A stretch of DNA of 64,000 nt, from NCBI RefSeq assembly GCF_058153355.1, contig NZ_CM177019.1; one strand, 5' to 3'. Made by a program: the position numbers. Positions 24,001-27,000 of this stretch are shown in pieces. Positions within the stretch are counted from its first letter, which is position 1. Every line of letters starts with the position of its first letter.

Positions 24001-27000
24001 GGTTAATATCGCACCGTATCGCTGGGGCAACGGCAGGCCGTCGGCCTGAACTTTTGGCATAGGAGCTTTATATCTTTGGTGAATAATCAACAGGGGTAAG
24101 ATTCTAGCACTGATATTCACGGTGGATGTCGCAGAATTGTAACTAACCGGCAAAAGATGGATTGCGACCACCCAGGTGCGAAATTATAATAAAAAACAGT
24201 TCTGATTTTTATAAAACACTCGCAATGAGGTGATAAATGGCTAACGCAGATCTGGATAAACAGCCTGATTCTGTATCTTCCGTGCTGAAAGTTTTTGGCA
24301 TTTTGCAGGCGCTGGGTGAAGAGCGCGAAATAGGGATAACCGAGCTGTCGCAGCGCGTCATGATGTCAAAAAGCACCGTTTATCGCTTTTTACAGACCAT
24401 GAAAACCCTGGGTTATGTGGCGCAGGAAGGGGAGTCGGAGAAATATTCGCTGACCCTGAAATTGTTTGAACTGGGCGCTCGTGCGTTACAAAACGTCGAT
24501 TTAATTCGTAGTGCAGATATCCAGATGCGTGAGATCTCCCGCCTGACGAAAGAAACTATCCACCTCGGCGCACTGGACGAAGACAGTATTGTTTACATCC
24601 ACAAAATTGACTCTATGTACAATTTGCGCATGTATTCACGGATTGGTCGTCGTAATCCGCTGTACAGCACCGCGATTGGTAAGGTACTGCTGGCATGGCG
24701 CGATCGCGATGAAGTGAAGCAAATTCTCGAGGGCGTGGAGTATAAACGCAGTACCGAACGGACCATCACCAGTACAGAAGCGTTATTACCCGTTCTGGAC
24801 CAGGTGCGCGAGCAGGGGTATGGCGAAGATAACGAAGAGCAGGAAGAAGGACTGCGTTGCATTGCGGTTCCGGTATTTGATCGCTTTGGCGTGGTCATTG
24901 CCGGTCTGAGCATCTCCTTCCCGACGTTGCGTTTCTCTGAAGAGCGTTTACAGGAATATGTCGCAATGTTGCATACCGCGGCGCGCAAAATTTCTGCACA
25001 AATGGGTTATCACGACTATCCGTTCTGATGAGAGTAAGAACCTGTCTGAATATCAAACAGACAGGTTCTTTATTTAGCATGAGAAAAATAAAGTTGAAGG
25101 TGGCGTTATATTAAACGCACTTGCGATAAGAATATTTTACTTATGAGTGAGAATCTGGTTATTTATTACCCTTAACCATTATCGACCACAATATTGCTTT
25201 TACGTAACAACGGGCAATCTGTTATCCCCAGAAAACCACTTTTAGTGTGCAGGTATTGTACCGTGCTGGTGCCTCTGGCGGTCAGATAGGTACATTGCAA
25301 ACCTAATCCCGCGGCATTCTCTTTGCTTCCAATCAAAACGCCATATCCGCTGAGTAATAATCCTATCCATACCAGTGCTATCAGCATAACTGTGCGAATG
25401 ATGAATCGCATTACAACCTCTTCTCTTTTTATGTTCACTTAATCGTAGCGGCAATATGCGCTGAAGCAAGCGACTCATTCTGAAAAAGCACGAATATCGA
25501 CATAGTTAGGCGCTGTTTAACTAACGCATGCTAGTTTAATGACATAAGGTAGGTGAAACGGAGATTGGAGTGAAAAAGTTTCGATGGGTCGTTCTGGTTG
25601 TCGTGGTGTTGGCTTGCTTGCTGCTTTGGGCGCAGGTATTCAACATGATGTGCGATCAGGATGTACAATTTTTCAGCGGAATTTGTGCCATTAACCAGTT
25701 TATCCCGTGGTGATATCATTTTTTCAGCACTAGATTTTCTTCCTCTCCAGCAGTGGTAGAATAGCGCCTCTACTCAGAGGTGGTGAAATGAACGAAGTTG
25801 TAAATTCAGGCGTGATGAACATTGCGTCTTTGGTTGTATCGGTGGTAGTTCTTCTTATCGGGCTCATCTTGTGGTTTTTTATCAATCGTGCCAGTTCACG
25901 AACTAACGAACAGATTGAACTGCTTGAGGCGTTGCTGGATCAGCAAAAACGTCAAAATGCACTGTTACGTCGTTTGTGCGAAGCAAACGAACCTGAGAAA
26001 GAAGATAAAAAGACCGTTGAGAGTCAAAAATCGGTTGAAGACGAAGATATTATTCGTCTGGTCGCCGAACGGTAATCCTTCCTCAATCTTGAGTAACCCC
26101 GTCGTTGAAGGGTTACTCAATTCATCCTGATTATACGCACTGTCATGGTGCAACTGCTTCAAATTAAAACTCTGGTCTGACTTCAAATAATTATCATATT
26201 ATTTATTTGCGTAACGGGATATCAGAAAAAGATATTTAGCCCATTAATTTATTAGGATGTTTACATCGGATTTGTGATTAAGCGTGTTATTATTTATTAG
26301 CGAAACGTTTCTCTCTTGATTTTTTTGCGCATTCATCAATTTTTCTTATTTTAAATTTACAATACCTTTGGCGATTGACTTCTCTTTGGGGTGGTTGATA
26401 GCCGTTAACTGACTGTTTTATGAGAAAAAGTGATATAACTTTTTATTCATTGCATAGCAGAAAATGTGATATTGCACGCACTATGTAATAACTTCTCCCA
26501 TTGGCCTGGAACAACTGAACTTATTGAACTATGTTAGAAAATACGTCAGTTTAAGTATCTGCCTGAACTGGCAAGGTTAAGCACAATGATATATCGGCGC
26601 GTATTCCGTTGCATAAGTGTGCAAAAAAAGTGGAAGACGTATCGAGATTTGTGCGTCTGATCGAGACATGTTTAAAAATGGCTTGCCATAATTAACGTTG
26701 TATGTGATAACAGATTTCGGGTTAAACGAGGTACAGTTCTGTTTATGTGTGGCATTTTCAGTAAAGAAGTCCTGAGTAAACACGTTGACGTTGAATACCG
26801 CTTCTCTGCCGAGCCTTATATTGGTGCCTCATGCAGTAATGTGTCAGTTTTATCTATGTTATGCCTGCGGGCGAAGAAAACAATCTAAGGAATTTTTCAA
26901 ATGGCAAAGATTAAAGGTCAGGTTAAGTGGTTCAACGAGTCTAAAGGTTTTGGCTTCATTACTCCGGCTGATGGCAGCAAAGACGTGTTCGTACACTTCT

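Follow-up and report, generated by a model that had tools for sequence, protein, structure and literature searches.

The DNA studied here is a stretch of 64,000 nucleotides from Escherichia coli (NCBI RefSeq assembly GCF_058153355.1, contig NZ_CM177019.1), referred to below as the window; positions are window coordinates, and K-12 positions are those of the MG1655 reference NC_000913.3 unless stated otherwise. We examined the long gap that separates yebO from the cold-shock-family operon yobF-cspC. Along the plus strand the genes come in the order kdgR, yobH (on the minus strand), mgrB, yebO, yobF, cspC and rlmA (Table 1), and the 1.5 kb around the gap are 98–99.9% identical to 5414 complete E. 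coli genomes. A first-pass annotation, made by reading the sequence, had described the gap as a large, AT-rich, non-coding stretch of about 670 bp, and this description held: it is 669 bp long, its K-12 counterpart (NC_000913.3 1907592-1908260) carries no RefSeq feature, and its GC content is 35.4%, compared to 49.9% for the window, a GC content as low as expected of H-NS-bound, silenced DNA. Equally AT-rich 669-nt windows amount to 0.27%, and the only other 669-nt stretches of the window with a GC content of 37% or less lie at ~10181-10850 and ~40371-41040.

In 49 kb of annotated K-12 sequence, no intergenic region is longer, the runners-up measuring 428 and 421 bp. The 428-bp one, between yobD and mntP, owes its length to the known mntP leader, as a manganese (yybP-ykoY) riboswitch match lies there upstream of mntP (28780-28881, minus strand, 42.4 bits for a gathering score of 45). 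The absence of any open reading frame (ORF) of 60 aa or more from the yebO-yobF gap was confirmed for ORFs lying wholly inside it; two ORFs found mechanically on the minus strand, of 73 aa (25965..26186) and 68 aa (26577..26783), only overlap its edges.

Table 1. Position of the features in and around the yebO-yobF gap. Positions are window coordinates, except for the metallo-beta-lactamase-fold genes, which are given in the coordinates of their own loci.
Feature	Position	Strand	Details and evidence
yebO	25788-26075	+	
yebO-yobF gap	26076-26744		
yebO (mgrB-yebO mRNA) terminator	26089..26124	+	hairpin fold, inverted repeat, Term-seq 3′ end
AT-rich spacer, Escherichia-specific	26125..26285	none	alignment of 77 loci
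LacI-family-type palindrome AGCGAAACGTTTCTCT, central CG	26298..26313	none	inverted-repeat search, conservation in 77 loci
Far-upstream conserved module, promoter-like	26320..26362	+	consensus, matrix scan
Genus- or clade-level conserved blocks	26405..26475	none	repeat search, Escherichia alignment, family-wide consensus
Conserved island CGAAACGTTT	26296-26315		77 loci
Conserved island GTCAT..TTCATTATTTTGGTGCA	26330-26362		77 loci
Conserved island, no assigned element	26450-26472		77 loci
Conserved island, distal promoter	26504-26545		77 loci
Conserved island GCATAAnTGTGCA	26609-26624		77 loci
Distal sigma-70 promoter	26507..26543	+	−35 TGGAAC 26507-26512, 17 nt, −10 TATGTT 26530-26535, start 26543
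Distal-transcript leader, 202 nt	26543..26744	+	mapped start, Term-seq, conserved island GCATAAnTGTGCA
Near-invariant proximal core, two overlapping sigma-70 promoters	26646..26719	+	consensus and matrix scans, starts
Upstream element ATTTGTGCGnCnGATC of the core	26646-26662		
First proximal promoter	26663-26697	+	GAGACA 26663-26668, 18 nt, TG-n-CATAAT 26687-26692 (extended −10), start 26697
Second proximal promoter	26683-26719	+	TTGCCA 26683-26688, 17 nt, GATAAC 26706-26711, start 26719
Short yobF leader	26720..26744	+	Shine-Dalgarno GAGG 26728-26731; sequence, literature, Rfam
yobF	26745-26888	+	
cspC	26901-27110	+	
Metallo-beta-lactamase-fold gene, examples	3308-4303 (L012); 3309-4298 (L028)		~32 other loci likewise

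Promoters and RNA ends upstream of yobF-cspC

Transcription starts of K-12 were taken from the table of Kim et al. 2012, which uses NC_000913.2 coordinates. Conservation was measured as major-base frequency in 77 aligned upstream regions (about 25 genera), out of 80 loci fetched in the Enterobacteriaceae with YebO as bait, one genome per species. The DNA next to yobF forms a near-invariant core (mean major-base frequency 0.93), and holds an upstream element followed by two overlapping sigma-70 promoters, whose architecture is present in 77 of the 77 loci. The second of these promoters leads to the proximal K-12 start (1905641, 249 reads, 5′ untranslated region (UTR) of 26 nt), at 26719; the same TTGCCA-17-GATAAC arrangement was printed for the yobF spacer by Shimada et al. 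2014 (PMC3946193). The first leads to 26697, the equivalent of a Salmonella start: the yobF::sfgfp fusion of Salmonella 4/74 was built from the SalComMac start, and the insert in its primer begins with GTTGTATGTGATAACAG, which corresponds to window position 26697.

A third, distal promoter was predicted from conservation, ahead of its match to a start listed by Kim et al. 2012 (K-12 1905817, 107 reads, 5′ UTR of 202 nt), which falls at 26543. Scanning the alignment with a sigma-70 matrix recovered this architecture, as TGGACG-17-TATGGT, in 66 of the 77 loci, with conservation values of 0.80 for the −35 hexamer, 0.69 for the spacer and 0.89 for the −10 hexamer, compared to 0.41–0.46 for the flanks. 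In all three promoters the hexamers are 17 or 18 nt apart, within the 16 to 18 nt usual for sigma-70, and stand upstream of the start at the distance expected (5 to 9 nt), and the starts at 26543, 26697 and 26719 give leaders of 202, 48 and 26 nt. Except for one single-nucleotide polymorphism, the upstream sequences printed in Kim et al. 2012 match the window.

Several peaks of RpoD holoenzyme, plus an H-NS flag, were obtained in vitro in what was called the ‘670 bp spacer’ (Shimada et al. 2014, PMC3946193), and a 2026 paper uses the promoter names yobFp1, yobFp2 and cspCp8. The suggestion that the gap might hold multiple promoters was therefore right, with two K-12 starts, one Salmonella-equivalent start and several polymerase peaks. 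Start-site and RNA-seq data had been proposed as a check, and public maps provided the starts at 26719 and 26543 and the 3′ ends at 26123-26124 and 26620 (see below); the Kim et al. 2012 table lists no start in 26076-26542. A peak for RpoN/NtrC in genomic SELEX (systematic evolution of ligands by exponential enrichment) lies at about 26708, and no convincing sigma-54 −24/−12 element was seen near it by eye. On the minus strand, a promoter-like element oriented leftward (TTAACC or TTGACC, 17 nt, TACAAC; 26697-26725) keeps its place in the alignment throughout the 77 loci. It may only be a reflection of the invariance of the core, and we know of no antisense start at 26697-26725.

At the other extremity of the gap, 14 nt past the yebO stop codon, lies a hairpin whose 11-bp stem (26089-26099/26110-26120) is perfectly paired and whose loop measures 10 nt. 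In the Term-seq data of Adams et al. 2021 (PMC7815308), the ‘primary’ 3′ end of yebO was found at K-12 1908212/13 under all three growth conditions, which converts to 26123-26124, 3 to 4 nt beyond the stem. The hairpin is retained with compensatory changes in three other Escherichia species (in E. albertii, for instance, TTGAG/CTCAA becomes CTGAG/CTCAG), and strong hairpins follow yebO at the same place in Citrobacter and Klebsiella. We conclude that this hairpin is the working terminator of yebO. The first-pass annotation had noted no obvious terminator, which is fair by eye, and our own consensus scan found no terminator-like site in 26076-26744 either; both missed the hairpin because it has no U-run.

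The Term-seq table of Adams et al. 2021 (PMC7815308) contains a second 3′ end in the gap, an ‘orphan’ at K-12 1907716, 125 nt upstream of yobF, which the text of that paper does not discuss. It corresponds to 26620, is present in one of the three condition sheets, and has there a score of 264,852, compared to 46,490 for the yebO terminator in the same sheet. Since it lies 77 nt past the start at 26543, a leader fragment of ~78 nt probably accumulates. The end falls within the 3′ arm of a weak AU-rich hairpin (26599-26640), and what follows is AAAAAAA, not a U-run. The RNA might end there through termination (Rho-dependent or paused), through processing, or at a roadblock: if a polymerase sat on the proximal promoters, its upstream edge would be near 26640, and a complex colliding with it would halt some 18 to 20 nt earlier. 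The orphan end resembles the premature 3′ ends and 5′ UTR-derived RNAs described by Adams et al. 2021 (PMC7815308), in that it lies in a mapped 5′ UTR and figures in their table; it differs in being devoid of an intrinsic terminator.

Two other explanations of the distal transcript had to be weighed against such a premature end, and both had been anticipated, as an unannotated small RNA or a long structured leader. The start at 26543 and the end at 26620 might delimit a separate small RNA gene of ~78 nt, acting in trans or as a sponge. The 107 reads at the start, an orphan peak ~5.7 times that of the yebO terminator in the same condition, the conservation of the promoter and of the 3′-end island, and the fact that 5′ UTR-derived fragments can regulate (Adams et al. 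2021, PMC7815308) are all in its favour. Yet the end has no stem-loop with a U-tail, the 78-nt RNA folds no better than its shuffles (z = +0.25), there is neither an Rfam match nor a consensus structure, and the body (26545-26605) is just 24–43% identical across genera, with indels. Moreover, the end was seen in only one condition out of three, and the yobF leader in its full length of 202 nt begins at this very start. The idea of a small RNA thus keeps a weak footing in the mapped ends, and we consider a dedicated gene unlikely. Alternatively, the 202-nt leader could be a structured cis-element, such as a thermosensor, an attenuator or a riboswitch-like device, gating yobF-cspC, with the 26620 RNA as its ‘off’ product. 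A long leader with a premature end, a local hairpin at 26599-26640 more stable than its shuffles (z = −2.1), a reported post-transcriptional heat induction of YobF, and the thermosensors known among cspA-family mRNAs (RF01766) are compatible with it. Here again the leader itself exists, but a structure finds no support: the full leader has a z-score of −0.78, its body varies in sequence and length, and it contains no intrinsic terminator. In RNAalifold runs on 51 non-redundant orthologues in 120-nt frames, each frame within 26236-26675 had a consensus energy of 0.00, whichever strand was folded. The covariance search that had been proposed was thus negative, since Rfam (E≤1, 24000-29000) also gave nothing in 26076-26724, and only the edge of the cspA element, 20 nt of it, enters the gap at 26725. 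Reported heat and small-RNA effects were studied on the short leader, and a structured long leader seems to us about as improbable as the small RNA gene. We infer that the 26620 end reflects premature termination, a roadblock or processing on the yobF leader.

Conserved islands and the Escherichia-specific spacer

Upstream of the core, conservation is restricted to the short islands listed in Table 1. The DNA between them varies freely in sequence and length, up to 26646 where near-invariance begins. Islands set in unalignable DNA of variable length are the pattern of binding sites rather than of an RNA or a protein, and we take them as putative protein-binding sites.

One of the islands contains the 16-bp palindrome AGCGAAACGTTTCTCT. 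It has the LacI/GalR form, a palindrome of 16 to 18 bp that has CG at its centre and AAAC/GTTT as the cores of its half-sites. Its core CGAAACGTTT is found in 70 of the 77 loci, the Klebsiella/Raoultella group lacking it, with a major-base frequency of 0.95, compared to 0.58 for its flanks, and the 12-mer GCGAAACGTTTC occurs exactly once in the window. At 15 of 16 positions the palindrome agrees with AGCGAAACGTTTCGCT, the RbsR operator, which in K-12 precedes the start codon of rbsD by 11 nt (locus L083, 273-288). The two sites are thus alike as 16-bp palindromes with a central CG, and the copy near yobF has been kept across the family; they differ in that the latter is away from any mapped promoter and is putative, being recognised by its sequence. 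It lies 245 bp upstream of the nearest mapped start (26543), and ~50 bp upstream of the predicted start of the far-upstream module, which is degenerate in E. coli. To our knowledge, yobF appears in no published report of RbsR targets. This absence and the distance weigh against RbsR control, and so do the right half-site, which differs (GTTTTTA) in most genera, and the genomic SELEX of RbsR, which found only 5 sites. An RbsR-type operator is therefore a tentative proposal, doubtful on present evidence.

Several related candidates were discarded. A possible second operator copy, TATTATTTATTTGCGTAACG at 26197-26216, 91 bp upstream, was considered as a looping partner and rejected because it shows no conservation even among the other Escherichia. 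As binders of the palindrome, Cra (~10 of 16 positions, without TGAA T), PurR (which wants GCAAAC where GCGAAAC is present) and KdgR (whose half-sites require a 3-nt spacer) fitted poorly, judging from their consensus sequences, which serve as leads only.

Next to the palindrome is the far-upstream module, which looks like a promoter. Most genera have TTGAnG-17-CATTAT and then TTTTGGTGCA; Escherichia has the decayed form TTGCGC-16-TATTTT, with AAATTTACA after it. The sigma-70 matrix recognised it, as TTGAnG-17-CATTAT or TTGCCT-17-N6, in 34 to 42 of the 77 loci, and gave the E. coli version a score of 5.9; the K-12 table lists no start for it. The module was also considered as a small RNA promoter in other genera, and this was rejected, as a terminator-like hairpin ~100 nt downstream was found in Kosakonia and not in Phytobacter or E. 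cloacae. The Kosakonia hairpin (L028, 4456-4474) has a U-rich tail and is preceded by a conserved inverted repeat, GGTGCA-N14-TGCAC; together with the module it could produce a short transcript limited to that genus.

The blocks at 26405-26475 include a family-wide island, GCAT..GCAnAAAA, and belong in part to a repeat: a motif of 22 nt, built on the core (C/G)AGAAAA(A/T)G(T)GATAT, has three copies, at 26219-26240, 26418-26439 and 26454-26475, and pairs of GTGATAT stand at matching places in Salmonella and Citrobacter. The K-12 table has no start in these blocks, which could be transcription-factor sites or silent promoter-like sites. Two further candidates were rejected: a PhoP-box-like TGTTTA-N5-GATTTG (26258-26274) is confined to Escherichia, and yobF reporters were not PhoQ-dependent; CRP-like half-sites (TGTGA at 26465, TGTGC at 26618 and 26650) all lack a good second half.

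The first part of the gap behaves differently. From 26076 to ~26235 it is alignable only inside Escherichia, a partial alignment with Salmonella and Citrobacter beginning at ~26236. In the family alignment the spacer consists of 40–80% gaps with an identity below 30%, and inside the genus its identity is merely 50–82%; the whole gap is 50–88% identical within Escherichia, compared to 85–100% for the flanking genes. The spacer segment is single copy and unannotated in 5423 of 5426 E. coli genomes. Across the 80 loci the distance between yebO and yobF is bimodal, either ~600–760 bp (Escherichia, Salmonella, Citrobacter, Klebsiella, Raoultella and the E. cloacae group) or ~1520–1580 bp (Lelliottia, Leclercia, Kosakonia, Phytobacter, Buttiauxella, Cedecea and others). 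The difference is made up by a gene for a 330-aa protein of the Lactamase_B_2 (metallo-beta-lactamase-fold) family, placed directly after yebO in ~34 of the 80 loci. Some Enterobacter also carry it; Escherichia, Salmonella, Citrobacter, Klebsiella and the E. cloacae group lack it. Downstream of the gene no strong hairpin was found. This distribution is observed directly; that the gene was lost, or gained, at the locus would be an interpretation of it.

Such a loss is the basis of another explanation, namely that the greater part of the gap, from 26125 to ~26500, has no function and is a relic, the scar of a deletion or replacement, biased towards AT and coated by H-NS. The bimodal spacing and its 330-aa gene are what one would expect, as is a first segment of ~210 bp that aligns with nothing beyond Escherichia, diverges faster than the neighbouring genes in the genus and has no mapped start; the decay of the far-upstream module in Escherichia and the reported H-NS flag go in the same direction. 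However, no residual similarity to the gene is left: with the Lelliottia protein as a tblastn query, the best match in the gap was 16 aa long (E = 8.2), where intact genes gave 1e-134 or better, and the gap was therefore rejected as a remnant of that gene. In addition, CGAAACGTTT and the other islands in 26290-26475 are conserved over ~25 genera or among Escherichia species, unlike neutral DNA, so that a relic could at most account for 26125-~26285. For the larger segment we find it improbable. The possibility that the gap encodes an unannotated small protein fared far worse. Many small proteins of E. coli were missed by annotation and the gap holds eleven ORFs of 20 to 31 codons, but among ORFs of 20 codons or more that lie upstream of ~26646, none is intact in the Escherichia species and Salmonella together. 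One on the minus strand (26546..26614) is open in three other Escherichia and has many non-conservative changes, and a 22-codon ATG ORF at 26420 has no Shine-Dalgarno sequence; ORFs overlapping the core stay open because the DNA itself is conserved. Ten of the eleven had no NCBIfam hit, eight of these having no Pfam hit either. We regard a small protein as very improbable indeed.

yobF as a probable part of the cspC leader

In the short yobF leader, at the right edge of the gap, pairing of OxyS has been reported or predicted near the yobF Shine-Dalgarno sequence, and CyaR also targets the yobF mRNA. The sole match to the cspA thermoregulator of Rfam (RF01766) extends from 26725 to 27185 (135.4 bits, gathering score 78), over yobF. 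The gap itself is thus not a member of that family. Compared to the cspA promoter and 5′ UTR, the locus is similar in that the downstream gene is a cspA paralogue and that start 26719 is 182 nt away from the cspC ATG, the cspA leader being ~160 nt long. It differs in that the match is almost wholly outside the gap, that the upstream 650 bp are dissimilar, and that the leader here contains a translated small ORF, yobF.

Codon-position conservation in the 77 loci was unusual for yobF, with 0.986 at third positions, 0.960 at first and 0.974 at second. Third-position values were 0.591 in yebO, 0.681 in mgrB and 0.900 in cspC. This high third-position value, together with the alignment of the 5′ UTR part of RF01766 over the yobF ORF, suggests that yobF is constrained at the nucleotide, i.e. 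RNA, level. It seems that yobF is a cspA-type leader of cspC which also carries a translated small ORF.

Some further observations were made on this segment. For the proximal leader plus the yobF ORF (26697-26905), 196 out of 200 shuffled sequences folded more stably than the native one (z = +1.86), as though selection kept this segment open. A Term-seq 3′ end classified as ‘internal’ lies in yobF at 26857 (K-12 1907479), 44 nt before the cspC ATG, under two conditions, and minor starts within yobF (26772-26789, 7 to 11 reads) were assigned to cspC by Kim et al. 2012. Two other Escherichia lineages (L003 and L005) have an in-frame stop at yobF codon 39, leaving a product of 38 aa. This is the length of the Pfam DUF2527 model, and in many genera the tblastn match is limited to the first ~38 codons of yobF.

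Control of yobF-cspC

Taken together, we conclude, with a probability of about 0.8, that the yebO-yobF gap is a composite and mostly regulatory intergenic region, and not a gene. The mgrB-yebO transcript ends at the hairpin terminator. Beyond it come some 160–210 bp of fast-evolving, AT-rich filler, where many Enterobacteriaceae have the metallo-beta-lactamase-fold gene, and then what is probably an old upstream control region made of short islands, among them the RbsR-type palindrome and the promoter-like module that decayed in Escherichia. The conserved distal sigma-70 promoter launches the long leader at 26543, and the two overlapping, invariant proximal promoters the short ones at 26697 and 26719. 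With promoters in tandem, the output of yobF-cspC would be governed by the choice among them. Nucleoid and other DNA-binding proteins would contribute by occupying the AT-rich upstream DNA, where H-NS and several polymerase sites were seen in vitro. A further layer would act on the leaders, through OxyS and CyaR on the yobF mRNA and through the premature 26620 end on the long leader.

The closest parallel is the mngB-cydA spacer (847 bp, five promoters; PMC3946193). Like it, the yobF spacer separates co-directional genes, exceeds 600 bp, is AT-rich, has polymerase peaks and an H-NS site, and carries tandem promoters for one operon. Unlike cydAB, yobF-cspC has no assigned transcription factor, and only the last ~240 bp of its spacer are shown to be transcribed.

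Several points weigh against this interpretation. About 430 bp (26076-26506) are devoid of a mapped transcript, and a regulatory role for them is presumed from conservation and in-vitro binding; condition-specific transcripts are possible in the gap. The high-affinity nucleation motif of H-NS, TCGATAAATT, is not enriched, with a single match at two mismatches or fewer (26518-26527), so that H-NS binding at the gap rests on AT-richness and on the in-vitro genomic SELEX flag (PMC3946193). The locus is not mentioned in the supplements of the in vivo protein occupancy display at high resolution (IPOD-HR). In one study a yobF upstream reporter, of unstated coordinates, had no activity. Finally, a discrete short RNA ending at 26620 accumulates in one condition, which a pure promoter region leaves unexplained.

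A more ambitious scheme can be drawn from the sequence. The palindrome might function as an operator, bound by RbsR or by a LacI-family protein close to it, tying yobF-cspC, or the ancestral far-upstream promoter, to ribose or nucleotide status, and the distal promoter with the 26620 end might form an interference or attenuation switch that releases the ~78-nt leader RNA. This is speculative, and we hold it improbable. A screen for succinate growth in Salmonella yielded both rbsR and cspC mutants, and its authors ascribed the RbsR effect to RpoS (PMC10965054). If the operator and the switch were real, they would offer a direct route to the phenotype common to these mutants.

Much of what is assembled here, i.e. 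the control region, starts, 3′ ends, polymerase and H-NS binding and small-RNA targeting, is already present in public data sets or papers, and the region adds no new kind of element. Little is new: how the islands are distributed across the family, the presence of an RbsR-type palindrome, the connection of the 26620 end with the distal start, and the bimodal gene content of the locus.

CspC is an abundant RNA chaperone that affects RpoS-linked stress responses, Salmonella virulence (ugtL/PhoP) and the use of succinate, and in ageing colonies and cultures of E. coli, selection has repeatedly favoured loss-of-function mutations of yobF-cspC. In E. coli strain 361 (L085), an IS1 is present 67 bp into the gap (~26142), and everything from there through yobF, cspC, rlmA and mntP to part of pdeD is missing, a loss which fits the published selection against cspC. 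A part-by-part map of the 669-bp region should help in reading such adaptive yobF-cspC mutations and in designing reporters, and it highlights one candidate input, the putative RbsR-type site.

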